Shown: positions 36,187 through 57,471 of the stretch, one piece after another
How the letters are laid out: each line of letters opens with the position of its first letter
How positions within the stretch are numbered: position 1 is the first letter of the stretch
Source: an uncultured bacterium
Lineage (GTDB): Bacteria; Muiribacteriota; Ozemobacteria; Ozemobacterales; Ozemobacteraceae
DNA: 64,000 nt
NCBI GenBank assembly: GCA_964472075.1
Contig: CAYYIY010000001.1
Span: forward strand, 150,670-214,669
Direction of reading: 5' to 3'
The notes under the pieces: model-generated
What the model saw: only the letters and a program-made list of their open reading frames with translations
Database searches by the model: none
Told to the model about the DNA's origin: nothing
Position numbers and translations under genes: made by a program

Positions 36187-38415
36187 ATGAGTTCGTCGTT
36201 CACTCATCGATGCCGTTTCTGCCTGCTATGGCTGTGTCTCGCATGTTTCACGGGAAGCCTTCAGGCGCAGGAACTGCAGGTCTGGGCCATGGGTGCCGAG
36301 GGCAAGCTGATTCGCGAAATGGCCGACCGGTTCGAAGCCGCGAACCCCGGCGTGAAAGTTGTCACCCAATCGATCTCATGGGGGACAGCCCACGAAAAGC
36401 TGGTAACGTCGATTGTCGGAAACATGGAGCCTGATGTCTGCCAGCTCGGCACCACCTGGATGGCCGAGTTTCAGACGATGGGCGCTCTCGAACCAATCGC
36501 CCCATGGCTGGCTTCTTCGAGCATCAGAATGACCGAGTTCTTTCCGGCATCGCTCGATTCGAACCGTTTCAACGGCGAGTTTTTCGGAGTTCCGTGGTAT
36601 GTCGACACCCGCGTTTTCTTTTATCGTACCGATCTTGCATCGGCCGCAGGCTTTTCACGCTTCCCCGAAACCTGGACGGAACTGAAAACCCTGGCGCACA
36701 ACCTGAAACGACTCAAGGCCGAGCGCGGCATTCCCGGGTTCGTTTACGGCCCAGGCATTGGCGACTGGCAGATGCTGCTGATGTATTTCTGGCAATGCGG
36801 CGGCGAGATACAGCCTGAGTTATGGCCCGGCCCGATCATGGGCAACGATGTTCTGCGCGAAGCATTCGAACACATCGTGTCGTTCTACGACGAAGGGCTG
36901 TCACACCGCGAGCAGGGCGGCGAGCAGGAGCTGATCGCCGGTACGGAGTCGGGATATTACCCGATGTATGTTTCCGGCCCATGGCTGGTAAACGAACTCG
37001 AAAGCCGGCCGGGCTTGAAGGGGCGCTGGACAACCGCTCCTCTGCCGCGGCATCGGCGCGGCACCTCGTTTCTGGGTGGGTCGAATCTCGTGATGTTTCG
37101 CGGCTCAAAGCTCAAGCCACTCGCCTGGAAATTCATCGAGTTCATGAGCACCCCGGAACATCAAGCTCTGTGGTATGAGATCTCACGCGACCTGCCGGCT
37201 CGACAGACCGCATGGGATCTTCCCGCTTTGGCGGAACGTCCGCATCTCGATGCCTTTCGACGACAACTGCTCGATGCGCGCGCCCCGCCCGCCCTGCCGG
37301 AGTGGGAAGCCATGGCGGAGCGTATCTCACATCGGTATACCGAGATCATGCGCGGCGGACGCCCGATCGACGAGGGAATCGCGTTACTGCAGGAAGACTG
37401 CGCCGCCATCATCGAGCGCAGCGGGGTTCGCCCGGGCATTCGCTTTTCGTGGCCGCTGGCAATTGGTCTGATGCTGGTTCCCGCCGTTCTGGCCTTTCTT
37501 TATCTGCACACCGATCCGGCCCGACCTCCCTCTGAACGCCTGCGCTCGCGGGCCTGGCCGTTTCTTCTGCCGGCCCTGCTGCTGATTCTGGCTTTTCGTT
37601 TTCTGCCCGGCGCCGCCTGTCTGGTTACCAGCTTTACCAACTGGGACATTTACGGAATACAGGACCCCGGCCGCGTGCGCTTCATCGGCCTCGACAATTT
37701 TCTGGCTCTCGCCGAAGATCCCGCGTTCTGGTATAGCCTGCGCAATATTCTGGCGTTTGTCCTGGTCGGCGTCCCATTGAATATTGTCACGGCGCTGATC
37801 ATCGCCTTGGTTCTTGATCAACCGTGCCGGTCACTCAAAGGGGTTTCGCGAACCCTGTTCTTTCTCCCCACCGTCACCACGCTGGCTGCCGTTGCTCTCG
37901 TCTGGCAGCGTATCTACGCCGTTGAAGGCGGATTGTTGAACCAACTCTGCCTGTGGGTCGGGCTTCCGGTCGTCAACTGGTTGAACCATTCGTGGTTGGC
38001 CCTGCCGGCACTGATCACCATGACTGTCTGGAAAGGCTTCGGCCTGAATGCCGCGGTCTTTCTCGCCGCGCTGCAGAACGTGCCGGAAGAATTGTACGAG
38101 CAGGTCGAGATCGACGGCGGCAACTGGTGGCACAAGATACGTCACGTAACCCTGCCGTTTTTACGGGGCAGCATGGTGTTTGTCTTCGTCACGACGACGG
38201 TGGGAACCTTTCACGTGTTTACCGAACCTTACATGATGACGGGCGGCGGCCCGCTTTACGCAACGTTGACGCCGGTACTTCACTTGTACCAGAATGGGTT
38301 TCAGTTTTTCCGACTCGGGTATGCGTCGGCAATCACCTGTACTCTGAGCGTTGGGGTTATCGCGTTCAATCTGCTGCAGCAGGCCATGCGACGCCGTTGG
38401 GGAGGCACGCCTTGA
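36187..38415 (+). CDS. Fused ABC transporter: family-1 extracellular solute-binding protein joined in-frame to a MalF/UgpA-type permease
   Basis: The N-terminal ~430 aa carry a signal peptide and a sugar-binding-protein fold. The C-terminal ~300 aa contain six TM helices and the EAA loop EELYEQVEIDGGNWWHKIRHVTLP. There is no stop between the two parts. Confidence 0.7.
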   Translation: MSSSFTHRCRFCLLWLCLACFTGSLQAQELQVWAMGAEGKLIREMADRFEAANPGVKVVTQSISWGTAHEKLVTSIVGNMEPDVCQLGTTWMAEFQTMGALEPIAPWLASSSIRMTEFFPASLDSNRFNGEFFGVPWYVDTRVFFYRTDLASAAGFSRFPETWTELKTLAHNLKRLKAERGIPGFVYGPGIGDWQMLLMYFWQCGGEIQPELWPGPIMGNDVLREAFEHIVSFYDEGLSHREQGGEQELIAGTESGYYPMYVSGPWLVNELESRPGLKGRWTTAPLPRHRRGTSFLGGSNLVMFRGSKLKPLAWKFIEFMSTPEHQALWYEISRDLPARQTAWDLPALAERPHLDAFRRQLLDARAPPALPEWEAMAERISHRYTEIMRGGRPIDEGIALLQEDCAAIIERSGVRPGIRFSWPLAIGLMLVPAVLAFLYLHTDPARPPSERLRSRAWPFLLPALLLILAFRFLPGAACLVTSFTNWDIYGIQDPGRVRFIGLDNFLALAEDPAFWYSLRNILAFVLVGVPLNIVTALIIALVLDQPCRSLKGVSRTLFFLPTVTTLAAVALVWQRIYAVEGGLLNQLCLWVGLPVVNWLNHSWLALPALITMTVWKGFGLNAAVFLAALQNVPEELYEQVEIDGGNWWHKIRHVTLPFLRGSMVFVFVTTTVGTFHVFTEPYMMTGGGPLYATLTPVLHLYQNGFQFFRLGYASAITCTLSVGVIAFNLLQQAMRRRWGGTP

Positions 38416-41792: not shown

Positions 41793-42530
41793 CTAGAGAC
41801 GCCGAACACGATACTCAGCGAACATCGCGCATGCCGCCGTCAGCCGCGAGGCATGACGTTCTGCCCGCATCAGGGGTTCAAACCATGACGGCGGCAGAAA
41901 CTCTCGATGCGAGAATCCGCCGGAACACGCATACGAAAGCGGCATCAATCGTTCCACCCGTTCGACACGCAGCGCCGGAAACTCAGCCTGCAGAAGCGTT
42001 CGGTCGCGGTGAAACAGCAGATAAGCCAACGCTCCGTTCGCCCCCGAAAGCGGTCCGGTAGAGGCAAACTCCCATCTCCGCGTATGCGGACGAAACGGCT
42101 CGTGGTGCAAAAAAGAGTAAATGAACCTTGACCAGAGCGAGTTCCAGGGTTCGATCAGGTGTAACACTCCACCCGGTCTCAGGCAGCGAACGACTTCACG
42201 CAGGAATACGCGCGGCCGCGAGAGATGATGCAGCACGTTCAAACCGACGATCGCCTTGAGCGAGCCGGTCTGAAACGGCAACCCCTGGGTCGCGTGCAGA
42301 CGAACGTCGATCGAGTCGAGATCAAGCAGATCGGATCTCACCACGTCAGGCAGCAGCTCCTCAAGAAACCCGCCACCCGAGCCGACTTCGAGCACCGCCC
42401 CCGCGCCTTCCGGTATGCCGGTGAGCAAACGCCGATACCAGTCCGTGTAGATGCTCTTCAGCACCGGTCGCTGCCGAAACAGCATGCGGCGCAGGCGGGT
42501 CACGGAGGGTTGATCAAGTTCGCGGCACAT
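41793..42530 (-). CDS. Class I SAM-dependent methyltransferase
   Basis: VLEVGSGGGFL ... VGLNVLHHL ... LRPGGVL motifs. Start was placed at an internal ATG to avoid overlap with divergent wzm. Confidence 0.65.
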   Translation of the reverse strand: MCRELDQPSVTRLRRMLFRQRPVLKSIYTDWYRRLLTGIPEGAGAVLEVGSGGGFLEELLPDVVRSDLLDLDSIDVRLHATQGLPFQTGSLKAIVGLNVLHHLSRPRVFLREVVRCLRPGGVLHLIEPWNSLWSRFIYSFLHHEPFRPHTRRWEFASTGPLSGANGALAYLLFHRDRTLLQAEFPALRVERVERLMPLSYACSGGFSHREFLPPSWFEPLMRAERHASRLTAACAMFAEYRVRRL

Positions 42531-42605
42531 ACCGATACTATACCATCGGTCGCCAATCGATCGCTCGGCATTGCAGCCGCAGGCAGGCTGCCATACAATA
42601 CGCGC

Positions 42606-43394
42606 ATGTTCACCCCGTTGCTGCAGCACCGACACCTCACCTGGGAACTGGCCAAGCGAGAGTTTCAAGATCGCTTTATCGGTCACATTCTCGGCTGGGT
42701 CTGGGTTGTGCTGCAGCCAGTGTTGTTCATGAGCATACAGATTTTCGTGTTTGCCTGTATCTTTCGCGTTTCACTTGCCGCTTATCCGCATCTTCCCTAT
42801 ACCTATGCCACCTATGTTCTCGCCGGCATGATTCCCTGGTATTACACCCAGGAACTGCTGATGAAATCCTGTCAGGCCGTCTCGAGCCAGGCCGGCCTCG
42901 TCAAGCAGGTGGTGTTTCCGATCGAGGTGCTACCGCTGAAAACCGTGGTCGCCACTTTACTGCCACAGCTCATCGCCATCGGTCTCTTCATGCTGTATAC
43001 CCTGGTGACCTTCGGCGCTCTTTCCTGGACTTATCTGCTGCTGCCTCCGACCGTGCTTCTTCAGAGCCTCTTTCTGTCGGGAATCGCGTGCCTGCTTTCC
43101 GCGATCGGCGTATATGTTCGCGATATACGTGACATCATCCAATCGATGCTGATGGCGGCTCTCTATCTGCTTCCCGTTTTTTATCTTCCCGACATGGTTC
43201 CCGGCATTTTTCGCTACGTTCTCTGGCTCAACCCGTTCAGCTATATGGTCTGGGTGTATCAGGACATCCTGTATTTCGGCTCAATCGCACACCCCGAGGC
43301 ATGGCTGGTGTTCATCATCGAATCTTTCGTCTCGTTCGCCGTTGGTTCCCGGGTGTTTCACAAACTGAAAATCATGTTCGGCAGCCATCTGTAA
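42606..43394 (+). CDS. ABC-2 type polysaccharide export permease (Wzm/TagG-like)
   Basis: Six TM helices and an ABC-2 family pattern. Start is at MFTPLLQHRHL. Confidence 0.8.
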   Translation: MFTPLLQHRHLTWELAKREFQDRFIGHILGWVWVVLQPVLFMSIQIFVFACIFRVSLAAYPHLPYTYATYVLAGMIPWYYTQELLMKSCQAVSSQAGLVKQVVFPIEVLPLKTVVATLLPQLIAIGLFMLYTLVTFGALSWTYLLLPPTVLLQSLFLSGIACLLSAIGVYVRDIRDIIQSMLMAALYLLPVFYLPDMVPGIFRYVLWLNPFSYMVWVYQDILYFGSIAHPEAWLVFIIESFVSFAVGSRVFHKLKIMFGSHL

Positions 43395-44791
43395 TGAGCA
43401 CCGTTCCCATACAGGTTTCCAGCCTCGGAAAGCAGTATCGTCTGTACGAGCATCCATGGGAAATGCTCTCGGAACTGTTGTTCGGCAAAGGCAACGCCCG
43501 CGATTTCTGGGCCTTGCGCGATGTCACTTTTGAGGTACAAGCCGGCGAGGTTTTCGGTATTATCGGTCGCAATGGCGCAGGCAAGAGCACACTTCTGCGT
43601 ATTCTCGCCGGTACTCTCGACCGAACCACCGGAGAGGTCAACGTGTCCGGAAGAGTTTCGGCCATTCTCGAACTGGGCACCGGGTTCCAACCAGACTACA
43701 CCGGGCGTGACAATATTCGCATCGGCGGAATGTGCCTCGGCATGAGTCGCCGAGAGGTTGACGACAAACTTGAATCGATCATCGAGTTCAGTGAATTGCG
43801 TGAATTCATCGATCAACCGTTCCGCACCTATTCTTCCGGCATGCAGGCGCGCCTGACGTTTGCCACGGCCATCAGCGTCATTCCGGACATTCTCATCATC
43901 GACGAAGCGCTCTCTGTCGGAGATGCGCGATTCGCCCGCAAATGTTATGAACACCTCCAGGAGCTGAAGCGACAGAAACGCACGATCCTGATGGTCAGTC
44001 ATGACATGAACTCAATCAACACCTTCTGTGATCGCGCCCTGTTGCTCGAACAGGGAAGAGTGCTCGCCATCGGCGACCCGCGCGATGTCACACACCAGTA
44101 TTACGGCCTGCTCTTCGGCCCGGAATCGTCTGAGACATCTGCGCAAGCGACTCCCACTGTCGACCCGTTACCCGTGTCCTTAACTCACGACGTATCCGAC
44201 CCTCCCGTCGAAGCGCTTCGACCCGGAATACACCAGTCTTCTCGCTGGCTTCCCGAAAATATCCGCACACCAGAGAACTCGGACGAATGGATCGCCGCGG
44301 CGCGACGGCATCTTCAGCTCGAAGCGCGAGCACTGCCCGCTCGTGGATTCGTCGTCGGCGGTGGAGAGGTGCATATTCTCGATGCCGGGGTTCTCGACCT
44401 GCAGGGACAACTCCTTCATTCGCTTCATTCCGGCCAGGATTGTCTGCTCTATTTTCGCGCCATCTTTCTTCAGACTCTGCCGAGAGTCAATGCCGGAATT
44501 GTCCTGCGCAGCACTCGCGGCGTTGATCTGTTCGGCGTGACGAACGAGACGATGGGTTGGGACATTCACGATGTTCCGGAAGGCGCCATCGTCGAGTGCC
44601 GCGCCCGGGTTCGCATGTGGCTGACCAACGGAACCTACTTTCTGACCGTCGGGATCAGTCGCGCTCCCGGGCCGCAATGTGAACTGATCTATGACGCGTA
44701 TGCTTTTGATGTTCTGCCAACCCCCGGCATCTTCACGACATCACTTGTCGACCTGTGCGCACAGTTCGAGGTTGAGGTGCATCGACCATGA
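43394..44791 (+). CDS. ABC transporter ATPase with C-terminal extension (Wzt-like)
   Basis: Walker A GRNGAGKST, signature YSSGMQARL, Walker B ILIIDEALSVGD. A ~200-aa C-terminal domain beyond the NBD resembles O-antigen-terminus-binding Wzt proteins. The ATG overlaps the wzm stop. Confidence 0.8.
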   Translation: MSTVPIQVSSLGKQYRLYEHPWEMLSELLFGKGNARDFWALRDVTFEVQAGEVFGIIGRNGAGKSTLLRILAGTLDRTTGEVNVSGRVSAILELGTGFQPDYTGRDNIRIGGMCLGMSRREVDDKLESIIEFSELREFIDQPFRTYSSGMQARLTFATAISVIPDILIIDEALSVGDARFARKCYEHLQELKRQKRTILMVSHDMNSINTFCDRALLLEQGRVLAIGDPRDVTHQYYGLLFGPESSETSAQATPTVDPLPVSLTHDVSDPPVEALRPGIHQSSRWLPENIRTPENSDEWIAAARRHLQLEARALPARGFVVGGGEVHILDAGVLDLQGQLLHSLHSGQDCLLYFRAIFLQTLPRVNAGIVLRSTRGVDLFGVTNETMGWDIHDVPEGAIVECRARVRMWLTNGTYFLTVGISRAPGPQCELIYDAYAFDVLPTPGIFTTSLVDLCAQFEVEVHRP

Positions 44792-45828
44792 CCGCCTTGC
44801 CTTTCAACGGCGTGTCCGAGTCACGCAACCGAGCGGAACGGATGTTCGAGTCGGTTCCCTGCCCGTTATGCGGCCGGTCAGAAGCGCGACGATTGTTCCG
44901 CCGCCCTGATCACACCTATGAAATGTCCGAGTTTTCCTTTCCCGTAGTGCGCTGCCGATCCTGTTCGATGGTGTATGTGAATCCACGGCCGAAACCGGGA
45001 TATCTCTCTCTGTTCTATCCCAGGGAATTTTTCGGCGTGCAACGGCATCCGCGCGATGTTCTTATCGATCAGTCCGAGTCCATGCAACAGAAATGGCAGT
45101 TGCTGAAGGATCTTCCGCCGGGACGCATTCTTGATATCGGATGTCAGAAGGGGGAGTTTCTCTATTTCATGCAGTGTCGCGGCTGGCGGGGGCAAGGCAT
45201 CGAAATCTCCCCACTGTCGCCCAATCTGTTCAGGCAGGATATTCACTACGGACCTCTCGCTACGGCACCGCTGGAAACCGGGTCCTTCGACGCCGTCACG
45301 TTGTGGGCCGTTCTCGAGCATCTTCTCGAACCTCAGGAAATGCTGCAACGAATTCAACCCCTGCTGAAGCCGAACGGGCGTCTGATTGTCCTGGTCACCA
45401 ACATCTGTAGTTTGCCCGGGCGCTGGATGCGCCACGACGATATTCCGAGGCATCTGTTGCTTTTCTCCCCCCAGACGCTGAAATCCATGCTCGAACGATG
45501 CGGGTGGCAGGTGCAGCGGGTCCACTGCAACCACGTGTTGTTCGGCGGCCGGCATCGCGGCCTGTTCACGTATCTGCTCAAGTGGCTGGCCGGGGAATCC
45601 TTCGCGGACATCGTCGCCCAGAATCGAACCCCTGAGCGCTGGCTCGAGTTCACCACCCTCTTGCACGGCAAACCTTCGCGTCTGGTCGAGTGGGTGGAAT
45701 CCTGGGACAAGAAGCTCACCCCATGGCTGGACCAGCTGATGGACCGCCTCGGCTTCGGCTTCACGCTGATTGCCACCGCGACACCCCAATCGACAGAACG
45801 AATGATCTGTCACGGGAGAATTCGCTGA
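44788..45828 (+). CDS. Class I SAM-dependent methyltransferase with N-terminal CxxC...CxxC zinc ribbon
   Basis: CPLCG...CRSC, then RILDIGCQKGEFL ... TLWAVLEHL ... KPNGRLIV. Overlaps wzt by 4 nt. Confidence 0.7.
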   Translation: MTALPFNGVSESRNRAERMFESVPCPLCGRSEARRLFRRPDHTYEMSEFSFPVVRCRSCSMVYVNPRPKPGYLSLFYPREFFGVQRHPRDVLIDQSESMQQKWQLLKDLPPGRILDIGCQKGEFLYFMQCRGWRGQGIEISPLSPNLFRQDIHYGPLATAPLETGSFDAVTLWAVLEHLLEPQEMLQRIQPLLKPNGRLIVLVTNICSLPGRWMRHDDIPRHLLLFSPQTLKSMLERCGWQVQRVHCNHVLFGGRHRGLFTYLLKWLAGESFADIVAQNRTPERWLEFTTLLHGKPSRLVEWVESWDKKLTPWLDQLMDRLGFGFTLIATATPQSTERMICHGRIR

Positions 45829-47795
45829 TGTGCGGCATCTGCGGCTGGGTCAACACGGATCAGGCACAGCCGGCTCCTGTTGAGGTGCTCCGTCGCATGC
45901 TGGGTCGCCTCCGGCACCGCGGCCCGGCCTCGGGCGGCCTCTGGAAAGCGAAGCACGTGGCTCTGGGTCATGCCCGGCTGCCGATCATCGATCTGAGCTC
46001 GCAGGCCGCGCAGCCTATCGTGAGCGAAGACGGCAACTGCGTTCTCGTCTGCAACGGCGAGATCTACAACTTCGAGGATCTGCGCATCGATCTCGAGAAG
46101 CGCGGCCATCAGTTTCGGTCTCGATCCGATTCCGAAGTCATCCTGCATCTGTGGGAAGAAAAAGGTGAGAGTTGTGTTCATGATCTGATCGGCATGTTCG
46201 CGTTCGCCATCTGGGACGAACGCCGGGAGATGCTGTTTCTCGCCCGCGACCGATTCGGCAAGAAACCCCTGGTCTACGCGCGGTATCCGGATCACTTTGT
46301 CTTCGGTTCGGAGATCAAGGCTCTTCAGTGTGACCCAGGGTTTCGTCCGGCGGTCAGCGAGCGCGGTCTGTATCTGTATCTGGCCTACCAGTCGGTGCCG
46401 GCACCCTACTCGGCGTTCGATCGCGTCGAGAAGCTGCCGCCCGCCCATTGTCTGACGGTTCGCCGGGGACGGTGTGATCTGCGCGAATACTGGCGCCTGA
46501 GCCATGAACCGCGATTTTCCGATGCTCCCGAGCCGCCGGCCGCGATCGTCGCCGAACTGCAGGAGCGTCTGAAGCAGTCGGTGAAACGTCGCATTCGCGC
46601 CGACGTACCGGTCGGAGCCATGCTGTCGGGGGGAATCGACTCATCGCTGGTCGTGTCGATCATCGCCAGGCAGACCGATCAACCGCTGTCGACGTTCACC
46701 GTCGGGTTTCCGATCGCCGAGTATGACGAGCGCCCCTGGGCTCGAGAAGTCGCCGGCCAATTACACACCAATCATTTCGAGTTACTGGCCGGCCCTGAAA
46801 TCATCGATCTTCTTCCAGACATTGTCTGGTACTATAACGAACCGTTCGCCGACTCATCAGCCCTGCCGACCTGGCTTGTCTGTCGCCTGGCGCGTCAGCA
46901 CGTTACGGTGGCCCTTTCCGGAGACGGCGGCGACGAGTGTTTTGCCGGATACCCGCGCTACCAGAACATCGGTGAGCACGCGCTCGATCAGGGGTTTCCA
47001 TCAATCTGGGAGCGCTGGCACCGGCGTTTTCGTGACTGGCGGGGATTCGTCACCGGGCGTTCGTGGACCGCCGACCTGCGCCGCCTGGCGGATCTGCGGC
47101 AGGACCGACTGCTCTACTACTACCGACTGGCTCACTTCCACGAGGGATACCAGACCCGCCTTCTGACTCCCGAGTTCCGCCGCCGTCTGGGCGATCTGGT
47201 TGCGGTCGATCATCTGCTCGAGCGCTTCCGACGCAGTCGAGCGCCGACCTTTCTCGACACGCTCACTGAGATCGATCTGGGGTTGTACCTGCCCGACACC
47301 CTGATGACCAAGACGGACGTTGCCTCGATGGCGCATGCGCTCGAGGTTCGGTCTCCCTTTCTCGACCATACTCTGGTCGAGTTCTGCGCCCGATTTCCGT
47401 CTCACTGGAAGCTGAAGGACGGGTGCCAGGGCAAGTGGATTCTGCGTTGCGCCGCCGCTGATCTGTTGCCAGAGTCGATACTGAATCGAAAAAAGATGGG
47501 GTTCGGCATTCCGATGGACCACTGGTTCAGAAAGGAATGGCGGGACGTCGCTCATGACGCCCTGCTTTCCGGCCGCCTGATCGCACGCGGCTACTTCGAA
47601 CCCACCTATCTAAGATCACTCTTCGAGAGGCACCAACAGGGCGAAAGCTGGCAGTATCTGATCTGGAATCTCATCATGTTCGAGCATTGGCACCGTCGAT
47701 TCATCGATGGAGACGCCCCGCCGATGCCCGAACCGGAACTCACAATAACCGAAGTGAAAAGTGACCGCAGAGAATCCGGAGATCCTCCCCACTGA
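45828..47795 (+). CDS. Asparagine synthase (glutamine-hydrolysing) family amidotransferase
   Basis: N-terminal MCGICGW Ntn-Cys, NGEIYN and SGGIDSS PP-loop motif. Length is 655 aa. The ATG overlaps the upstream stop. Confidence 0.8.
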   Translation: MCGICGWVNTDQAQPAPVEVLRRMLGRLRHRGPASGGLWKAKHVALGHARLPIIDLSSQAAQPIVSEDGNCVLVCNGEIYNFEDLRIDLEKRGHQFRSRSDSEVILHLWEEKGESCVHDLIGMFAFAIWDERREMLFLARDRFGKKPLVYARYPDHFVFGSEIKALQCDPGFRPAVSERGLYLYLAYQSVPAPYSAFDRVEKLPPAHCLTVRRGRCDLREYWRLSHEPRFSDAPEPPAAIVAELQERLKQSVKRRIRADVPVGAMLSGGIDSSLVVSIIARQTDQPLSTFTVGFPIAEYDERPWAREVAGQLHTNHFELLAGPEIIDLLPDIVWYYNEPFADSSALPTWLVCRLARQHVTVALSGDGGDECFAGYPRYQNIGEHALDQGFPSIWERWHRRFRDWRGFVTGRSWTADLRRLADLRQDRLLYYYRLAHFHEGYQTRLLTPEFRRRLGDLVAVDHLLERFRRSRAPTFLDTLTEIDLGLYLPDTLMTKTDVASMAHALEVRSPFLDHTLVEFCARFPSHWKLKDGCQGKWILRCAAADLLPESILNRKKMGFGIPMDHWFRKEWRDVAHDALLSGRLIARGYFEPTYLRSLFERHQQGESWQYLIWNLIMFEHWHRRFIDGDAPPMPEPELTITEVKSDRRESGDPPH

Positions 47796-49161
47796 GTCGC
47801 TGAGCCAGCAACGGGTTTGCTGATTGAAAGCGCGGAATAAAGTCTTTCAGATAGGACTGTTCCGCAAAAAAGTTTGGTTCGAAACTCGTAACTTCCCATT
47901 GATGCTCGCGGAACAATTGTTCCAGTTCGCCGGCGCGGACCCGATTGCCGCATTCGCCGTTCCGCGACTCAAACTCCCCGGCAAACGACTCGGCATCGAG
48001 CAGTAGAAACTCAAGCGGTCGGTCCATGTCACGATGATCACGGAAATCGACCTGATGAAAGGCGAGCGCACCCGGCCTGGCCACCCTGGTCATCTCGCGA
48101 CAGGCAGCCCACGTATCGACACAATGTTCGAGCACCGCGTTCGAGAGAAAGAGATCGACGGAATGGTAGGGGACCGTTCGCAGGTTCTCGAGCGGGTGCG
48201 CAAACGGTTGAATCTCAGGGGCCTGCCTGTGGGCCAGAAACGTCTCGAGCACCGTGGTCGGCACACCGGGAAAAGCGCTCGGCATCGCCTGCAGCAGGGT
48301 CGCATAGAAACGCGAATGGTACTCTTCGACCCACGTGCAGAGAAACCGGTCGACCACGAACACCGTGGCCCCATGGCAGGCGAGGATCAGGGAACTGCCA
48401 AGATTGATGCCCGGCCCGATCTCCATGACCGTCTTTCCGCGAAGACCCTCGCCACCGCCCGGCAGTCGACTGAGATACTGTCGGGCCACGCGAATCGCGT
48501 GATCGACATCCTGTCTCAAGGCCTGCGGCGAGCAATCACGCTCACGCTGATTCACCGGCAAACCGGTTGCCGATAACAGGCCTGCTGACTTCATTCCAGG
48601 CGTCACCATTCTGGACATTCTCTCGGGCAGAACATTCCAGAGCCAGCGAAAGGCGCGCCGGAACGGCGGCACCAGGCAGACCACGTAGATCAGCCAGTAC
48701 AAAGCGGCCAGAAAGCGATTCCGCAGATTCCAATGGGAGACGTTGTGCAGCGGATGTTCGTCAGGCGGACGGAAGCGGTAGGAATACGTGCGCCCGTTGG
48801 TGTTGGGGTCCGAGTTGTCGCTGGTCGAAAACATGAGAAGGCGACCCCAGTGAGAGTACGAGCCACCACCATGTTGGCGAATGATCTCATGCAGACTATG
48901 AGGTGGTCCAAGTTCCACTCCATCTTCCATGAGGATCAGCGTCGACCGTTGATTGAACTCAGGCGTGTCCGCCAGCGCCGCCAGCTCGGGCATCTGCAGG
49001 CCCCAGCAGCGATCGATCTCGCGGAAGAACGGTCCCTCGAGTGGCACCGGATGGGCATGCTCCGCCCAGGTGCCCTTCTTCCAGGCTTCGAGCCACTCCT
49101 GTGCTTGCGACAGCAATTGCCTCGGCGACCAGGCAGGAGGCAGCGAATGGGGTCGTTTCAT
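47740..49161 (-). CDS. Class I methyltransferase-fold protein carrying an N-terminal unclassified ~55-aa domain
   Basis: VMEIGPGINLG ... VDLFLSNAVLEH methyltransferase motifs. The N-terminal region LMEDGVELGPPHSLHEIIRQHGGGSYSHWGRLLMFSTSDNSDPNTNGRTYSY recurs in two neighbouring genes. ATGA overlap with the upstream GT4 gene. Confidence 0.55.
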   Translation of the reverse strand: MKRPHSLPPAWSPRQLLSQAQEWLEAWKKGTWAEHAHPVPLEGPFFREIDRCWGLQMPELAALADTPEFNQRSTLILMEDGVELGPPHSLHEIIRQHGGGSYSHWGRLLMFSTSDNSDPNTNGRTYSYRFRPPDEHPLHNVSHWNLRNRFLAALYWLIYVVCLVPPFRRAFRWLWNVLPERMSRMVTPGMKSAGLLSATGLPVNQRERDCSPQALRQDVDHAIRVARQYLSRLPGGGEGLRGKTVMEIGPGINLGSSLILACHGATVFVVDRFLCTWVEEYHSRFYATLLQAMPSAFPGVPTTVLETFLAHRQAPEIQPFAHPLENLRTVPYHSVDLFLSNAVLEHCVDTWAACREMTRVARPGALAFHQVDFRDHRDMDRPLEFLLLDAESFAGEFESRNGECGNRVRAGELEQLFREHQWEVTSFEPNFFAEQSYLKDFIPRFQSANPLLAQRLSGEDLRILCGHFSLRLL

Positions 49162-50325: not shown

Positions 50326-53300
50326 CTACCTCGACACTTCCTCAATCTGCGACCAGCCGCGCGGGGCATATTCTCTCACACTCTTCAGACGACAGGCAAG
50401 AAAAGCCCCGTAGTCGAAGGCACGCAGATATTCGACAATTGCAGCGCAGGTCAGACTCGGGCCGTGCGTGACTGCATCGCGCAAACGACGATTGGCTATT
50501 TCCCACGTGTATTGCAGCCAGCGGGGTTTGAGCGTGACCAGGGGCAGGCAATACGTTGTGGAAGCGGCACCGCGCAGCCAGTCAACCACGCGGCAACCAT
50601 CTGTGGACCTCAGACCGAACACCCCGAGCGACGGATCGACAAACCACCAACGATCCCCCTCACTCAGCTTGATCTCCGCAACCCAGTGCTGAGTATGACG
50701 GCTGTATTGAGCCGCTGGAGAAAGCTCGTAGTCCAGATGCAACAGTCGAATGGATAGTCCGAGATCGTTCAGGATGTCAGCCAGCAAAAAGGTCTCCTGA
50801 TAACAATACAACTCGAGAGGAGCACTCGCCTGAAACAGTCTTTCGCGAACTTGTGAACGAGCCAGATCTCCCTCGTCGTGATGAAAGATCTCATGCGTCC
50901 GGGTTCCGAAGTCGACACGACGACTGTACCAGTCACAAAACTCGAGAAGTCTCTGCATTTCAGAATTGTTTGAATTCAGAAACACACGCAGAGGAGATGG
51001 CAGACTGTCGGCGTCGATCAATCGCACATACGGATTCATTTCCTGCCGAGGTGAGCGCATCAGAGGCCGCGAGAGTTGAGTCCGGGCCTCCGTGGCCACA
51101 CTCATGACAGGGAGATAGAACCAGACAGCATTCCCGGTGGTGCTATCCATGCCGACCCCAAGCAAGGCAGGGAGCGGGGTTGATACCGACGCCGCATTGC
51201 CGACAGCCGGCAACCACGACTCAGCCGGCCAGGCATGAAACACCGACGAAGGAACCACTGGAAGCAGCGGGTCGGGTTTCAGATCATCAGGCCACGTCAC
51301 AACCTTCACGCCGGTGACGGTCGACGTCCGAAGCATGATCGGCGTCGATCGCTCGGTGACGTGCTCTCCGGCAAACAATCGGTGACCGAGCGCCGGACCG
51401 CACAGTGCAGCGAGCATGAACAGACCGAGGAAAGTGATGCCCTCCCCGCCTTTTCCATCAAGCGATCGGCGCGGGTCTCGCTGAAACGGAGAAAACATCC
51501 AGAGACTGAGCACTCCGGCCATCAAAGGCCATGTCGCGGCCAGGACACGCCACCCGCCATCGAGGAAGATGAACGGCACAAACGCCAGCATGCATCCCAG
51601 AAGCATTGTCCAGAAAACAATCTCACGTCGACACTCCCGCATCGCAAGGGCGAATCCGAACCATAGACCAGTACCAATGGCGAGCAGCAAGACAAAACGA
51701 GAAGAGATCACCTCACCGATTGGCAGTGTCGCCAGAAGAATGGTCCGCAGAAACAGAAACAGATCGCCCATGAATTCTTTTCCTGAGCGGCGCAGATACT
51801 CCAGTGCCAGATCAGGCTGTCGCCGCAGAGATTCACAGCCACGTTCCCAGAGGAATTGCGCCCGTTCTTTTTCGGAGGGTCTTTTTTCCAGTTCCGACTT
51901 GTACTTTTCACGAACCTGCACCCAGGTCAGATTTTCAGCCATACCGCAGAAGGTGTATCCAGCGTTGGAATGCGGCAGATTGTCGGCACCACCGTAAACC
52001 CGAACGAGGAGCAACGGAAACAGTAGTCCCATCATGGTTCCTGCCAGCAGGCCGAGAAGCATTCTGCGAGTCCAGTCTCCCCGCCACGTGCTCCAGACAG
52101 CGTATAGAACGGGACCGACCAGCACCGTTATCGCGCCAACGCGTGCCTGCATTGCCAACGCCAGCCCCAGACCCGCGGCGAACTGCGCCAACGTTGAAAC
52201 CGACCAGGTTCCATTCAACAGCAGGCGCAGAGCGACACACCCGAGAGTCATTCCCAGAGCCTCTGAAAGACAGGTTCCCATAAAGCACTGCGCGTACGCG
52301 AGACACAGCGCAACACATCCGATACCCGTCCAGACTCCGTACCGGCGGCGCAGCCCGTCAGCCAGCCAGAAAACGCTTACTGCCAGCAGCACCACTTGCA
52401 TCAGTGTCGCCAGTTCCAGTCTCAGACCCGTCACCGCCAGACGAGCGGCAAGAAACGCGGCATTCAGCGGCCGGCGTACGTTCCACTCGTTCAAAGTGCC
52501 CTGCGCAATCAACTGATGCGCTCCGTTCAGATAACTGCGCGCATCACTGAGGGGGATATACCCCATAAAGGCGAAAGAGTACAGATCGTACCGGTGCATC
52601 GGCTCGGCGATCCCGCTCCATTGCCGAAACAGCGGCAACAGAAACAGCAGGACAGCCAGGATCAGACCCCAGCGGGCCATGCGGCGGCTCAAACCGCGCT
52701 CAGCCTTGATCCAGGCGGCTTGCTCCGCTCGCGGGCGCAGCCACCTGATCGCCCAGGCGCACCCGACCCCGCCCATCGCCCAGAGCCACAACCACCCCGG
52801 AATCTGACTGACCGTGAGGTACAGCAGATGCCGACCTCTGATCCATGCCCAGGCCTGCGTTGGAGCACAAGGAAACACCAGCGGCACGGCCAGAAACAGC
52901 ACCAGTCCTCCGATCGCGCCTGCCGCGAAAAGTGCCGGCATCAACCGACAGAATAACGGCCCCACAAGAGGAAGCGCGGTAAAGAACGCTGCCGCCAGAC
53001 TCAGCCAAAGCCCGACCGTCGCCGTTCTTTCGCTCCAGCCCGGAAGCTGTGGGCAACTTACTTCATATACCCGACCGTTGGTGCGTGGGTCACTTCCGTC
53101 CGAGCTGGAGAAAATCAGATCCTCGTTCCAATGCGAGTATCTGCCACCTCCTTTTGAGCGGATGTCGGCATGCAGGCTGTGCGCCATCGACAGCGAACGC
53201 CCGCTCTCAAAGAGTTCCAGGCGACTCCAGCGGGGAAAGCGTGCGCTGTCTCCCGTTCCTGTCATGGATGCGATACCACGATAGATAAACGCCTGCGAAT

Positions 53301-53442
53301 CGGTGGTTTCCGGTCTTATCTGTGACACATCGAGGGTGAGTCGAACCCTCGTGACCCGCTCCGGATCATACTGAAAACGCATACAGATGGTCGCCAGCAC
53401 CAGTAACAGGACAACCAGCGCAACGCGTGTCGGAACGTTCAT
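50326..53442 (-). CDS. Large polytopic membrane protein: N-terminal unclassified domain, >12 TM helices, C-terminal transglutaminase-like domain
   Basis: The N-terminal TM is followed by ...FESGRSLSMAHSLHADIRSKGGGRYSHWNEDLIFSSSDGSDPRTNGRVYEV. A long hydrophobic core follows. The C-terminus CYQETFLLADILNDLGLSIRLLH...HTQHWVAEI...WWFVDPS fits the Cys-His-Asp transglutaminase-like pattern. Confidence 0.6.
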   Translation of the reverse strand: MNVPTRVALVVLLLVLATICMRFQYDPERVTRVRLTLDVSQIRPETTDSQAFIYRGIASMTGTGDSARFPRWSRLELFESGRSLSMAHSLHADIRSKGGGRYSHWNEDLIFSSSDGSDPRTNGRVYEVSCPQLPGWSERTATVGLWLSLAAAFFTALPLVGPLFCRLMPALFAAGAIGGLVLFLAVPLVFPCAPTQAWAWIRGRHLLYLTVSQIPGWLWLWAMGGVGCAWAIRWLRPRAEQAAWIKAERGLSRRMARWGLILAVLLFLLPLFRQWSGIAEPMHRYDLYSFAFMGYIPLSDARSYLNGAHQLIAQGTLNEWNVRRPLNAAFLAARLAVTGLRLELATLMQVVLLAVSVFWLADGLRRRYGVWTGIGCVALCLAYAQCFMGTCLSEALGMTLGCVALRLLLNGTWSVSTLAQFAAGLGLALAMQARVGAITVLVGPVLYAVWSTWRGDWTRRMLLGLLAGTMMGLLFPLLLVRVYGGADNLPHSNAGYTFCGMAENLTWVQVREKYKSELEKRPSEKERAQFLWERGCESLRRQPDLALEYLRRSGKEFMGDLFLFLRTILLATLPIGEVISSRFVLLLAIGTGLWFGFALAMRECRREIVFWTMLLGCMLAFVPFIFLDGGWRVLAATWPLMAGVLSLWMFSPFQRDPRRSLDGKGGEGITFLGLFMLAALCGPALGHRLFAGEHVTERSTPIMLRTSTVTGVKVVTWPDDLKPDPLLPVVPSSVFHAWPAESWLPAVGNAASVSTPLPALLGVGMDSTTGNAVWFYLPVMSVATEARTQLSRPLMRSPRQEMNPYVRLIDADSLPSPLRVFLNSNNSEMQRLLEFCDWYSRRVDFGTRTHEIFHHDEGDLARSQVRERLFQASAPLELYCYQETFLLADILNDLGLSIRLLHLDYELSPAAQYSRHTQHWVAEIKLSEGDRWWFVDPSLGVFGLRSTDGCRVVDWLRGAASTTYCLPLVTLKPRWLQYTWEIANRRLRDAVTHGPSLTCAAIVEYLRAFDYGAFLACRLKSVREYAPRGWSQIEEVSR

Positions 53443-55487
53443 GCGCGACGTTGCAGAAGTGTTGCAGGAACGCGGATCATGTCGACCTCAGGCCAAACCT
53501 GCACAGTATAACGACGACCGTTGCGATTCGGATCCGTGTTGTCTGAGGTCGAGAAGAACAATCGCTCGTTCCAGTGCGAAAATCGTCCGAGTCCCTGCTG
53601 CATGATATCTTGATGTACAGCGTGTGCGACACCGATCGCTCGTCCGTTTTCGAAAATCTGTAATCTCGATTGAAACGGGGCGGCCATCGAGTCACCCGAC
53701 GTCGGCAACCTGGGCAGACCGGTCACCCAGCAATGTCCGTGCTCCTGTGAGAACGGTGCCGCGAGCGTCCAGGTCGAAAGCCCCGGATCCGTCGTGAGTT
53801 CATTCGCGAACAACCTGATGCTCAGCCGCATCTCGTGACAGCCGGCAGACGACGGCAACAGGCGCGGCGGCGCAAGAAACGCCTGTTGCAGCAGATTTCG
53901 CAGATCAGCGGTCAAAACCCAATAGAGCCGACCCTCGCCGGCAGTCGCCCGCGAGAGCGGAATCGCGAGCATCTGCTCTCCGGGGGTTTTCAATGGCAGA
54001 TAAGCAACCGGCTCGGCTTCGCGCAAGAGTACCAGACCGGGTTCCGCCAGCAGAGAAAGTAATTGTTCAGGGTCTTCGCACTGAACCAGCAAAGGAACCG
54101 TCTGCGCATATTCGCTCTCTGCCTGAGTCAACAATTGTCCTATATGCTTGATCATGAAACGAGGATCAATACGCCGAACCGCCGGCACTCGTTCGTTCAC
54201 CGCACGCTCGGCAATCTGTCCGGCGCACGCGAGCGCTTCGCGCCATCCACGCGTCTCGTCGGCGAAGTGCGAAAACAGATTGATCTGTTCGGTTGGCGGA
54301 TACACGGTCACCGGGCTCCAGTTCACGGAAAGGTCCAGGTCCAGAGCCTGCTGCAGATTGTCAGGCAGTTCGCGAACGGTCGATTTCATGACCAGCGCTC
54401 CCACGGACAGACGCCGATGCGGCAGGCGCTGGCGTCTCTGCAGTGCTTGAAGGGTCTCGAGAACCTGATCGAGTTCCGCTCCTCGTCTCAGTCGGGCGTA
54501 TGTTCGCGGCTGAAAACTGTCGACCGAGATCGAGATGTTCCAGCGTGAAAACTTCTCGAGCCAATCGCGCTCGCGCTCGCGAATCAAGACCCCGTTCGAG
54601 GTGAACCCGAAGGTGAGATTCGGATTGTCGTCAGGCCGAAACCGTTCGACGAACCCAATGAACTCTGGATCAACCCAGGGTTCACCGCCATTCCAGGTGA
54701 GATGCAGTAACGTAGGAATCAGCGCCAGTATCTGTTTGCCAAGTCCGGGAACCGCTCTTTGAGAGTTCCAGCGCGCATAGTTCTGACTGCACATCGGACA
54801 GTGCAGGTTGCACTCGAGCGATGATACCCAGGCCAGGTGCGAAGGCAACCCGTCCACCGAGGTTTTCCCTTGCCGCCAGGCTGATTCGAGTTTCGCAAGG
54901 TTCACTGATGAAGCGTGACTCGGATCGCCGCGGTCGAGCACGAACGTGCGCCCGGAGACCGGCAGTGAGACGACATACTTTCGACGATTGGTCAACGGAC
55001 TGGTACCGTCTGAGGTCGAGAAGAACAGAGCCCCCGTATCACTCAGATAGAAAGCCCCGCCGTCACGTCTGATCGCTTCGATACTCTGGAGTCCGGGGCC
55101 AAGTGCTCTATCATCCTCAATCAATACAGCTTTCGACAGATCGGTTTCATCAATTTCGAAAGGTTCAGGAAGCTGGTGGAAATAGCAGTGCCCCCCGTGA
55201 TGCCGCCACCCTGCCAGACCCTCGAACGGAGGCGGTTCGCCGCCGCTCCATTGCGTCGACAGGCAGGTTGCGCATGGGTATCCGGCGAGCCGTCCGTGCG
55301 CCAGATCCTCACGCAACCGGTGCCAGGGTTCACCGTTCCAGATCTCGGCCAGAGATGCCTCTCGCGCTTGACCGAGCGGAAGAGCGTCTCCACCATAACC
55401 GCGCCAGAAGCAGCAGGGGCTGACTTCTCCGGAGAGGTCGATCACCATCTGCTGCCATGGATATGCGCATCTGGGTTGCTTGACCAT
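53439..55487 (-). CDS. Radical SAM enzyme with N-terminal SPASM/twitch-like Cys module and two copies of the unclassified domain
   Basis: ECNLHCPMC (CxxxCxxC) and WNGGEPWVD (GGEP) radical SAM core. The N-terminus VSPCCFWRGYGGDALPLGQAREASLAEIWNGEPWHRLRE...PCATC resembles the C-terminal half of SPASM domains. ATGA overlap with the downstream gene. The track ORF begins with TTG at 55715, and the internal ATG was preferred. Confidence 0.65.
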   Translation of the reverse strand: MVKQPRCAYPWQQMVIDLSGEVSPCCFWRGYGGDALPLGQAREASLAEIWNGEPWHRLREDLAHGRLAGYPCATCLSTQWSGGEPPPFEGLAGWRHHGGHCYFHQLPEPFEIDETDLSKAVLIEDDRALGPGLQSIEAIRRDGGAFYLSDTGALFFSTSDGTSPLTNRRKYVVSLPVSGRTFVLDRGDPSHASSVNLAKLESAWRQGKTSVDGLPSHLAWVSSLECNLHCPMCSQNYARWNSQRAVPGLGKQILALIPTLLHLTWNGGEPWVDPEFIGFVERFRPDDNPNLTFGFTSNGVLIRERERDWLEKFSRWNISISVDSFQPRTYARLRRGAELDQVLETLQALQRRQRLPHRRLSVGALVMKSTVRELPDNLQQALDLDLSVNWSPVTVYPPTEQINLFSHFADETRGWREALACAGQIAERAVNERVPAVRRIDPRFMIKHIGQLLTQAESEYAQTVPLLVQCEDPEQLLSLLAEPGLVLLREAEPVAYLPLKTPGEQMLAIPLSRATAGEGRLYWVLTADLRNLLQQAFLAPPRLLPSSAGCHEMRLSIRLFANELTTDPGLSTWTLAAPFSQEHGHCWVTGLPRLPTSGDSMAAPFQSRLQIFENGRAIGVAHAVHQDIMQQGLGRFSHWNERLFFSTSDNTDPNRNGRRYTVQVWPEVDMIRVPATLLQRRA

Positions 55488-55518
55488 GGCTGTTTCGAAA
55501 AGTGACCTGCCCTGTCTT

Positions 55519-57471
55519 TCAGGGTCGCGACAGTGGCAACGACGGTCCTTCCCAGAAGCGGCCGATGTCTCGCTGGTACAAAGAGAGAATGATGCGACGG
55601 GAACCCCCGCGAGCGTGCAGCAGACGCAACAACGCGTAGGTGTCCTGCCGCAGGCGCGGTCCGCTGCAGGCCTGCTGCAGTTGTTGCTCAAGTTTTTCGA
55701 CCATCGGCGGCTCAACTTTGCCGCTCGCCATGGCGATGAAACGTCGCAGGTTCAGTCGATCGGAACTCAGATGCAGGATCGTATCGACCAGCCCCTGAAA
55801 TCGTCCGAGCAGATCGAGATCCGGACCCTCGATCAGATGAGGGCGAGGCCAGGTCAGATTGCCGAAATGAGCGGAAATGAAGACGGTAAACTGCTGCGGG
55901 ATCGCCTGCTGACGCAGCTGGCCCAGATACTCAACGGTCAGATCGTCCGGGTTCATCGACTCGATGAATACGACCTTTCCAGCAGGACCGGGCGGTAGAA
56001 GTTTGAGTAACTCAACGATGTCGTCAGGGACGGTGAGTCGCACGGCACGATCACTGCCGCGCACATAGAGCGAATCGGGAAACACGCCGCAGGTCGTTTC
56101 GAGCGTCTGTTGCCACTTCTGACGAGCCGCCTGAGCTTCCGCCCCGTTGCCGACCGTGCGCATGATGTTTTCCGCCGTCGATTGTCGAGTGACCCAGGCG
56201 GTGGCCCGCAAAGTCAGCTCGGCCATTGTGTGTTCACGTGACAGGTACAATACCGGAAGACGACCAGCAGTCTGCAAGGCAAAAGCCTGCATCCAGGCCG
56301 CTTTTCCTTCTTCGCGACCCCCGACGATCAGGTGCAGGCCGCGCTGCACAAACCCACCACCTAAAGCTTTGCCGAGTTCGACGCCGGGGGCAACCACCAC
56401 GGAAGCATGTGACGGCAGTCCGGAAACGAGTTCGGGCGCTTCGAGTTTCAGGGGACGGAACTGTCGAATTTCGCGCGTCGACAGGGTGGGTAGGGGCGCG
56501 GCCGGCTGAGACAAAGGAGCCGCTGTCGAAGGAAGAGAAGCCGGAGTTGCCACGGGGGCCGGTGCTGAAGCTCGCGTTTCTCCCACGCTTGCCGCCAGAC
56601 CGGCAAACACTTCCTTCAGTTTCTGAACCGGCTCTTTGGTGGATTCGAGAAACTTGATCCAGGTGCGAACTTCCTTGAGACACTCGTCCAGAGTTCTCTT
56701 TTTGCCGCAGTAATCGGAGAAAGCGGCGGGGCCATAGGCAAAATGGGACTGGCTGACCCCCACTTTCGGGCGGTGCAGCCCAGGGTGAATACTCCCCGGC
56801 ACGAGAACGGGAGTTGTCGCACTCGCCATCTCAGGCAGGATGGTTCGGTCCGTGGTTTTCATCAGGCGGCGATCACCACGTTTGATGCCGGCGATGCGCC
56901 CGATCAACGCCCGATACATGCGTCCGAGTTGCCGATGCCCGCCGCAGCCGAACACACCCGGGTGAATCTCGATCGCAATTTCATCGGGCGTGGCCAGCAG
57001 GAACATGGCATCGTTACTGATGCCGAGCGTTTTCAGACTTTCGATGAATCGGGTCGTATCGTCGTAGACTGCCTGAAATCCGAAGACTTCCTGATTCGGA
57101 CGATAAGGCCTGCCGTCGACCACCACATGAGTGTGTTCCCTGGCAAGCAGCTGCAGAAGCTCATCCTGACCCGGCAGTTCCGGTACTCTTTTCCCCTCGA
57201 CTTCGAGATGGATCTGCAGCCCTTCATAGCCGCATTCCTCGAGTAACAGATCAGAGGCGCGACGAATCGCATGCACCACGGTCATCGGCCCGGAAAGGAC
57301 GATGCTTTCTTCGTTGAAAGCCTGTTGCAGCTGTTCCGCATTTTCGGTTTCCTCGAAAAAGTAGGCGGAACGGTACAAGCCCTCAGGAACGGCTTTCAGC
57401 GCATCGCTCAGCCCTTTCAGGGGTTTGATGCCCGAAGCAACTCCCGACGCGGAAAGTATCAGCGCATTCAT
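55519..57471 (-). CDS. Hypothetical protein with C-terminal RecA/KaiC-superfamily domain (degenerate Walker A)
   Basis: The C-terminal GLHLIVGGREEGKAAWMQAFALQ...LYLSREHTMAELTLR resembles KaiC/DnaB-C/RadA folds, but Walker A is GGREEGKA. There is a Pro/Ala-rich linker, and the N-terminal ~270 aa are unrecognised. Confidence 0.45.
   Translation of the reverse strand: MNALILSASGVASGIKPLKGLSDALKAVPEGLYRSAYFFEETENAEQLQQAFNEESIVLSGPMTVVHAIRRASDLLLEECGYEGLQIHLEVEGKRVPELPGQDELLQLLAREHTHVVVDGRPYRPNQEVFGFQAVYDDTTRFIESLKTLGISNDAMFLLATPDEIAIEIHPGVFGCGGHRQLGRMYRALIGRIAGIKRGDRRLMKTTDRTILPEMASATTPVLVPGSIHPGLHRPKVGVSQSHFAYGPAAFSDYCGKKRTLDECLKEVRTWIKFLESTKEPVQKLKEVFAGLAASVGETRASAPAPVATPASLPSTAAPLSQPAAPLPTLSTREIRQFRPLKLEAPELVSGLPSHASVVVAPGVELGKALGGGFVQRGLHLIVGGREEGKAAWMQAFALQTAGRLPVLYLSREHTMAELTLRATAWVTRQSTAENIMRTVGNGAEAQAARQKWQQTLETTCGVFPDSLYVRGSDRAVRLTVPDDIVELLKLLPPGPAGKVVFIESMNPDDLTVEYLGQLRQQAIPQQFTVFISAHFGNLTWPRPHLIEGPDLDLLGRFQGLVDTILHLSSDRLNLRRFIAMASGKVEPPMVEKLEQQLQQACSGPRLRQDTYALLRLLHARGGSRRIILSLYQRDIGRFWEGPSLPLSRP

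Follow-up and report, generated by a model that had tools for sequence, protein, structure and literature searches.

In this study we describe a gene on the minus strand of a 64,000-nucleotide stretch of DNA (the window) from an uncultured bacterium of the family Ozemobacteraceae (contig CAYYIY010000001.1, positions 150,670 to 214,669; coordinates below are those of the window). The gene, 53439..55487(-), is predicted to encode a radical S-adenosylmethionine (SAM) enzyme whose auxiliary-cluster domain, of the twitch type, precedes the catalytic core, in a locus that also carries Wzm and Wzt. We hold, with moderate confidence, that the product is a single-chain radical SAM enzyme with an N-terminal twitch domain that tailors a Wzm/Wzt polysaccharide. 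The twitch-first order is already known to NCBIfam; what is new is the layout of the subfamily, in which the twitch domain (T), an unclassified module of about 80 residues (M), the core (R), a C-terminal domain (C) and a second module follow one another (T-M-R-C-M), together with the module itself and the polysaccharide context.

Residues are numbered from the methionine of ATG 55487, except where TTG numbering, which counts from an upstream TTG codon, is indicated. The Pfam family Radical_SAM (PF04055) matches residues 301-428 (TTG numbering) with 44.5 bits against a cutoff of 29.5 (E 2.5e-11), and the three Cys of CNLHCPMC and the four residues of GGEP are invariant in the 27 sequences aligned (Table 1), which bears out the radical SAM identity read from the sequence in the earlier note. 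In the AlphaFold2 model of the full chain, the predicted local distance difference test score (pLDDT) is 76.5 overall, mostly above 85 over residues 1-530 and above 90 across most of the core, which forms a partial (β/α)6 barrel; the predicted template modelling score (pTM) is 0.76. A Foldseek search against the PDB returned CteB, SuiB, viperin, MoaA, NifB, anSME and DesII with E-values of about 1e-6 to 1e-4 (probability 1.0 for CteB, SuiB, viperin, MoaA and anSME), and these matches to the core include enzymes of the SPASM/twitch class and their near relatives. Cys226, Cys230 and Cys233 would hold the SAM-cleaving [4Fe-4S] cluster.

About 250 residues, absent from the earlier note, separate the core from the second module copy. 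They include a family-specific region (Table 1) that is kept across the T-M-R-C clade and is modelled with pLDDT mostly between 73 and 94 up to about residue 530. Cys421, Cys470 and Cys550 are not conserved. A hidden C-terminal auxiliary domain was considered and ruled out, because no conserved Cys occurs past the core.

The N-terminal region matches the Pfam SPASM family (PF13186) over residues 83-151 (TTG numbering), which cover profile positions 1-66 of 67, with 49.2 bits against a cutoff of 21.5 (E 6.7e-13). This match sits about 220 residues upstream of the Radical_SAM match, and about 135 residues lead from the end of the twitch domain to the start of the core. Eight Cys are conserved in the 27 homologues aligned, C7, C25, C26, C72 and C75 in the twitch domain and C226, C230 and C233 in the core; seven of them are invariant, and C7 is found in only 25 of the 27, since the annotated start of the other two homologues is a later Met. 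C101 is common in the same sequences, not invariant. As both Pfam matches exceed the curated thresholds and the eight Cys are conserved, the matches are not due to chance.

The published SPASM motif is CX9-15GX4C-gap-CX2CX5CX3C-gap-C, and the twitch is defined as a truncated SPASM whose ligands are a Cys before the hairpin, a Cys after β2' and a CX2C after α2' (PMC6231123). The motif observed here is C7-x12-G20-x4-C25...C72-x2-C75. Thus only CX12GX4C...CX2C of the seven-Cys, two-cluster SPASM motif is present; there is no CX5CX3C part for the second cluster, and C75 has no Cys after it at +5/+3. Since the first part of the motif is there and the CX5CX3C...C part is absent, the region qualifies as a twitch under the published definition. 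The earlier note had recognised a SPASM-family domain ahead of the core, and this stands; it had taken the domain for the C-terminal half of SPASM, whereas it is a complete twitch, the first half. Indeed, a family profile of the twitch region matches one solved protein, BtrN, over residues 167-248, its C-terminal twitch (E 2.8e-6), and the four cluster-binding positions of BtrN line up with conserved Cys. The profile search was required for this match, since the first 100 residues, compared with the PDB as a single sequence, gave nothing meaningful. In the AlphaFold2 model, a β-hairpin (13-16/21-23) followed by a helix (53-63) reproduces the twitch topology.

The protein starts at ATG 55487 and comprises 682 residues. 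The mechanically listed open reading frame (ORF), 53439..55715(-), counts 758 residues from a TTG codon. Among the 27 aligned family sequences, 25 start a few residues ahead of the conserved CAYPWQQM, the remaining two are annotated from a later Met, and none carries the TTG extension. The GC content by codon position is 0.49/0.70/0.65 in the TTG-to-ATG stretch against about 0.64/0.48/0.64 in the genes of the window, while it is normal both in the coding sequence from the ATG (0.64/0.48/0.64) and in the overlapping tail of the upstream gene read in its own frame (0.68/0.49/0.71). Therefore the eight extra Cys, which the earlier note had counted in a possible extension overlapping the upstream gene, are that gene read out of frame, and a genuine Cys-rich N-terminal extension from TTG 55715 is ruled out by the codon-position GC. 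Homologue starts and codon-position GC agree in preferring ATG 55487, which the earlier note had already put forward, over TTG 55715.

The NCBI product of the gene (P0001, 669 aa) is annotated from ATG 55448, 13 residues after ATG 55487, and has lost the first Cys ligand. P0001 and the homologues P0020 and P0028 are all annotated from the Met of MIIDL/MVIDL, which removes the first conserved Cys of the twitch domain, and this looks like a systematic start-site error. In practical terms, this gene and at least two homologues have deposited annotations that begin too late, and the first predicted cluster-binding Cys is cut off.

The ambiguous start of the mechanical ORF, its overlap with the upstream gene and an NCBI annotation that cuts into the twitch domain could suggest that the N-terminal SPASM-like region is itself artefactual, through mis-assembly, a frameshift that fused the end of a radical SAM gene lying upstream to it, or a Cys pattern arisen by chance. 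However, the upstream gene is unrelated and shows only weak similarity to KaiC and RadA, dozens of independent genomes and metagenomes share the same order with conserved Cys, and the curated NCBIfam model NF033640 is itself twitch-first. We give this explanation almost no credence, as the homologue set effectively refutes it.

SPASM and twitch domains have been described as extensions C-terminal to the radical SAM core (PMC9012708); in the protein reported here the twitch domain lies on the opposite side. The earlier note had proposed the order SPASM-like domain, module, core, module and had suggested profile searches as a check. Pfam indeed places SPASM first and Radical_SAM second, and our own hidden Markov model (HMM) of the module detects one copy, A and B respectively, on each side of the core. 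The order was also called atypical, which is true relative to the literature; it is not novel, as NF033640 curates it and the twitch precedes the core in 105 of the 180 relatives for which architectures were tabulated.

Of the NCBIfam models, NF033640 ("N_Twi_rSAM", twitch domain-containing radical SAM protein) matches the protein best. A relative without the module, P0029, is colinear with this model in one stretch, twitch first (residues 11-298 to profile positions 5-303), and the same model ranks first in NCBIfam for each of the 55 module-less T-R relatives tested, at E<=1e-20 (best 2.8e-48); none of them comes to roughly the level of its curated cutoff. The protein itself also scores below the cutoff, and formal membership of NF033640 was rejected. 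Since NF033640 is the best match in every one of these cases, and yet its cutoff is not reached, the protein belongs to an uncurated sister group of the curated architecture.

An exhaustive profile search recovered 398 cluster representatives at E<=1e-30; a word-indexed search with profile A1 had found only 6 proteins. The 180 relatives were classified with our own HMMs for twitch, module, core and C-domain. T-R was found in 38 of them, T-M-R-C in 34, T-R-C in 19, and T-M-R-C-M or T-M-R-C-M-M in 8, and the total of 105 includes rarer twitch-first layouts. In module-less relatives the gap between twitch and core has a median of 41 residues. Tandem proteins were also encountered, five of the type R-T-R-T (P0088, P0095, P0104, P0133 and P0174) and five of the type T-R-T-R (P0147, P0154, P0156, P0158 and P0166). 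P0174 has a single CX3CX2C motif, and the other nine have two each. The two types adjoin in a crude neighbour-joining ordering of the cores. These proteins fit a duplication-then-trimming route to circular permutation, for which they are only suggestive. In the literature we found no paper on the curated NF033640 family, no biochemical or structural study of any member of the N-terminal-twitch clade, and nothing relevant on N-terminal twitch or SPASM domains, on circular permutation, on SPASM together with O-antigen or on bradyrhizose together with radical SAM; two Xanthomonas papers that mention both radical SAM and wzt deal with unrelated genes. As a natural circular permutation, this large uncharacterised twitch-first clade could serve to probe the position of the auxiliary cluster against function.

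In canonical enzymes the first strand of the twitch (β1') packs beside β1, at the N-terminal edge of the core (PMC6231123), so a twitch encoded before β1 can reach its canonical place. The enzyme is a circular permutation of the core-then-twitch order of BtrN, in which the twitch domain would occupy the canonical site and be joined to the core via the inserted β-module of 80 residues. In the twitch domain, C7, C25 (or C26), C72 and C75 would most likely bind a single auxiliary [4Fe-4S] cluster, with Cys as its only protein ligands. The tandems among the relatives, and the long tether that the module provides between twitch and core, raise the alternative that the twitch acts in trans, in a head-to-tail dimer or in a tandem as in T-R-T-R, each cluster complementing the neighbouring core. 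Against this, the median gap of the module-less relatives suffices for in-cis packing beside β1 (PMC6231123), and a single chain was modelled with the pTM given above; we regard the arrangement in trans as unlikely.

In the preferred single-chain enzyme, SAM would be cleaved at the radical SAM cluster to yield a 5'-deoxyadenosyl radical, which most likely takes a hydrogen atom from a sugar or a substituent of the glycan or its precursor. The auxiliary [4Fe-4S] cluster of BtrN has four Cys ligands, and a role in handling the electron has been proposed for it (PMC9012708). The four-Cys cluster of the twitch domain might likewise accept or relay an electron, as in BtrN-type oxidations, although the type of reaction is speculative.

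The window contains four copies of the unclassified module, spread over three genes that belong to a single string on the minus strand (Table 1). Its consensus is G-x-C-[WY]...L-x-E-D-G-x-x-L-G-P-x-H-x-x-H-x-x-I-R-x-x-G-x-G-R-[YF]-S-H-W...[LF]-F-S-[ST]-S-D-N-[ST]-D-P-x-x-N-G-R-x-Y. AlphaFold2 models copy B as eight strands and one helix, with pLDDT 93.6 and pTM 0.84. No Pfam family matches the module, and a Foldseek search of the PDB gave nothing significant, the best E-value being 0.31, with a weak resemblance to immunoglobulin-like folds. The module looks like a candidate new domain family. Elsewhere, its fusion partners include SAM methyltransferases, an FkbM methyltransferase, sulfotransferases, a sulfatase-like protein, a PhyH dioxygenase and a GT4 glycosyltransferase, as well as radical SAM-SPASM proteins of canonical order. 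In the Wzt protein of a Maridesulfovibrio metagenome-assembled genome (L011:18065-19798(-)), a copy at residues 305-383 stands between the ATP-binding cassette (ABC) ATPase and Wzt_C, and it links the module to polymer export. The common thread of these partners is glycan tailoring and export. Judged by the company it keeps, the module may be a shared targeting or binding domain; repeated as an accessory domain of tailoring enzymes, it would probably direct them to a common polymer or assembly complex. The analysis thereby brings to light an unclassified domain common to many glycan-tailoring enzymes.

The gene neighbourhood is that of an ABC-transporter-dependent polysaccharide locus, marked as such by Wzm and Wzt with Wzt_C, and the window also holds methyltransferases and a GT4 glycosyltransferase. 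We compared the window with 16 other loci that carry the family; they come from Nitrospira, Planctomycetota/Gemmataceae, Alpha- and Betaproteobacteria and Maridesulfovibrio. Bradyrhizobium sp. 14AA (P0014) and Methyloversatilis sp. XJ19-13 (L008) are cultivable bacteria with a homologue. Once the predicted proteins were clustered, 9 of the 17 loci proved to have an AsnB-like protein, 8 a Wzt and 6 a Wzm. Among the 102 neighbours lying no more than 5.5 kb away (16 loci), a Pfam census counted 14 methyltransferases, 8 GT1/GT4 and 4 GT2 glycosyltransferases, 6 Asn synthases, 5 Wzt_C/ABC and 4 ABC-2 proteins; RmlA-type, DegT and Polysacc_synt_2 proteins are also present. A role in glycan tailoring is likely.

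Most of the SPASM/twitch enzymes studied so far are peptide maturases, CteB and SuiB are top Foldseek matches, and sub-threshold NCBIfam matches point to many maturases, such as WgkB, PapB, DynA and CbpB. The enzyme could accordingly be a maturase of peptides that are made on the ribosome and modified after translation (RiPPs), with polysaccharide genes adjacent by coincidence. The maturase matches are limited to the generic core, however, and the fusion partners are sugar-tailoring domains. Moreover, across 16 genomes of four phyla the genes that recur next to the family are those for polysaccharides rather than peptide, protease or exporter cassettes. Pfam and NCBIfam found no RiPP recognition element (RRE), the peptide-recognition domain, and no peptide cassette was seen at the loci, where small ORFs were not searched exhaustively. 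Peptide maturation is in our view very improbable.

Another alternative concerns the substrate, which could be a lipid or lipid carrier (undecaprenyl, hopanoid or a lipid A acyl chain) rather than a sugar polymer. The radical SAM gene is translationally coupled to that of a large polytopic membrane protein, radical SAM enzymes that modify lipids exist, and one of them, GDGT-MAS, is among the Foldseek matches. Beyond the module, the membrane protein has no Pfam family, and its residues 879-940 only weakly resemble Acetyltransf_2 (E 0.011). The genes conserved nearby are those for nucleotide sugars, glycosyltransferases, methyltransferases and Wzm/Wzt, and none for lipid synthesis recurs among them, which makes a lipid substrate quite unlikely.

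Several observations nevertheless weigh against an enzyme that tailors the Wzm/Wzt polysaccharide as proposed here. The protein scores 98.3 bits with NF033640, in two stretches, against the curated cutoff of 170. Module copy A is degenerate, several conserved residues being lost. Neither the 650-aa upstream gene nor the alkaline phosphatase is a conserved neighbour of the family in the other genomes examined. Finally, stand-alone module proteins of about 140 residues have either a membrane-spanning anchor or a lipoprotein signal, so some copies may work outside the cytoplasm, which fits poorly with purely cytoplasmic docking.

We also put forward a bolder proposal, which we consider rather doubtful as a whole. 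The module would be a new recognition domain common to every tailoring enzyme in a widespread class of Wzm/Wzt pathways and, in certain genomes, to the exporter ATPase too, tethering these proteins to the nascent polymer or to each other. The permuted enzyme would install an undescribed radical-derived glycan modification, possibly a chain-end mark read by Wzt_C, and the R-T-R-T and T-R-T-R proteins would be living intermediates of the permutation.

Elsewhere in the window, a single 742-aa ORF, 36187..38415(+), combines a domain of solute-binding proteins (SBP_bac_1, 38-327) with one of ABC permeases (BPD_transp_1, 574-738); it represents either a fusion of an unusual kind or two genes that the ORF listing ran together. 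The coordinates of the features discussed are collected in Table 1.

Table 1 Features of the radical SAM gene and its surroundings, in window coordinates
Feature	Position	Strand	Remarks
Wzm (ABC-2 permease)	42225..43394	+	Pfam ABC2_membrane
Wzt (ABC ATPase with Wzt_C)	43301..44791	+	Pfam ABC_tran, Wzt_C
AsnB-type amidotransferase	45690..47795		In the window
Methyltransferase with module, 525 aa	47740..49317	-	Methyltransf_11/23 domains
Module copy in the 525-aa methyltransferase	48775..49011	-	Module HMM E 1.2e-22
Polytopic membrane protein, 1038 aa	50326..53442	-	ATG overlaps the radical SAM stop codon as ATGA (verified)
Module copy in the 1038-aa membrane protein	53053..53226	-	Module HMM E 1.3e-20
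Radical SAM protein coding sequence, corrected ATG start	53439..55487	-	682 aa; translation verified
Module copy B, residues 581-663	53499..53747	-	Module HMM E 6.5e-24; well conserved
Family-specific C-terminal region, residues 401-560	53808..54287	-	Helices, then a β-rich domain; no conserved Cys
Radical SAM core, residues 212-400	54288..54854	-	PF04055; CX3CX2C and GGEP
GGEP	54678..54689	-	G267-G268-E269-P270 invariant (27 sequences)
CNLHCPMC (CX3CX2C), residues 226-233	54789..54812	-	C226/C230/C233 invariant in 27 sequences
Module copy A, residues 95-176, between twitch and core	54960..55205	-	Own module HMM E 2.7e-25; pLDDT 86-94 in the full model
N-terminal twitch domain, residues 5-92	55212..55475	-	Pfam SPASM; conserved C7, C25, C26, C72, C75
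TTG-to-ATG extension of the mechanical ORF	55488..55715	-	76 aa, 8 Cys; non-coding in that frame
Upstream gene, 650 aa	55519..57471	-	Weak P-loop similarity: KaiC E 0.022, RadA E 8.6e-4

Like the proteins described by NF033640, the protein reported here has a twitch domain followed by a radical SAM core, from which it differs by the 80-residue module between the two, the family-specific C-domain and the second module. With anSME, CteB, SuiB and PqqE, which are SPASM enzymes, it shares the fold class of the core and the first half of the Cys motif, CX9-15GX4C...CX2C (PMC6231123), while it lacks the CX5CX3C...C part of the second cluster and an RRE, and its auxiliary domain is N-terminal. The twitch of BtrN (2-deoxy-scyllo-inosamine dehydrogenase, PDB 4M7T/4M7S) is homologous, and its Cys occupy equivalent positions, the first ahead of the hairpin, the next after β2' and two more after α2', to which the family adds an adjacent Cys that forms a CC pair. 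BtrN differs in that its twitch follows the core and in that it has 250 residues and no accessory domains; its substrate is of the carbohydrate type, and a chemistry common to both enzymes might, hypothetically, be envisaged.

At the level of the pathway, the locus resembles those of ABC-transporter-dependent O-antigen tailoring and termination of the WbdD/WbbB type, with Wzm, Wzt carrying Wzt_C and methyltransferases. WbdD and WbbB are molecular-ruler chain terminators, and the likeness to them rests on context; we know of no radical SAM chain terminator. In three relatives, P0003 (about residues 620-800), P0004 and P0032 (about 430-520), long stretches that look like coiled coils lie between the catalytic part and the terminal module, a layout that we take to resemble the molecular rulers of WbdD and WbbB. 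The subfamily also suggests that radical chemistry takes part in the synthesis of ABC-transporter-dependent surface polysaccharides.

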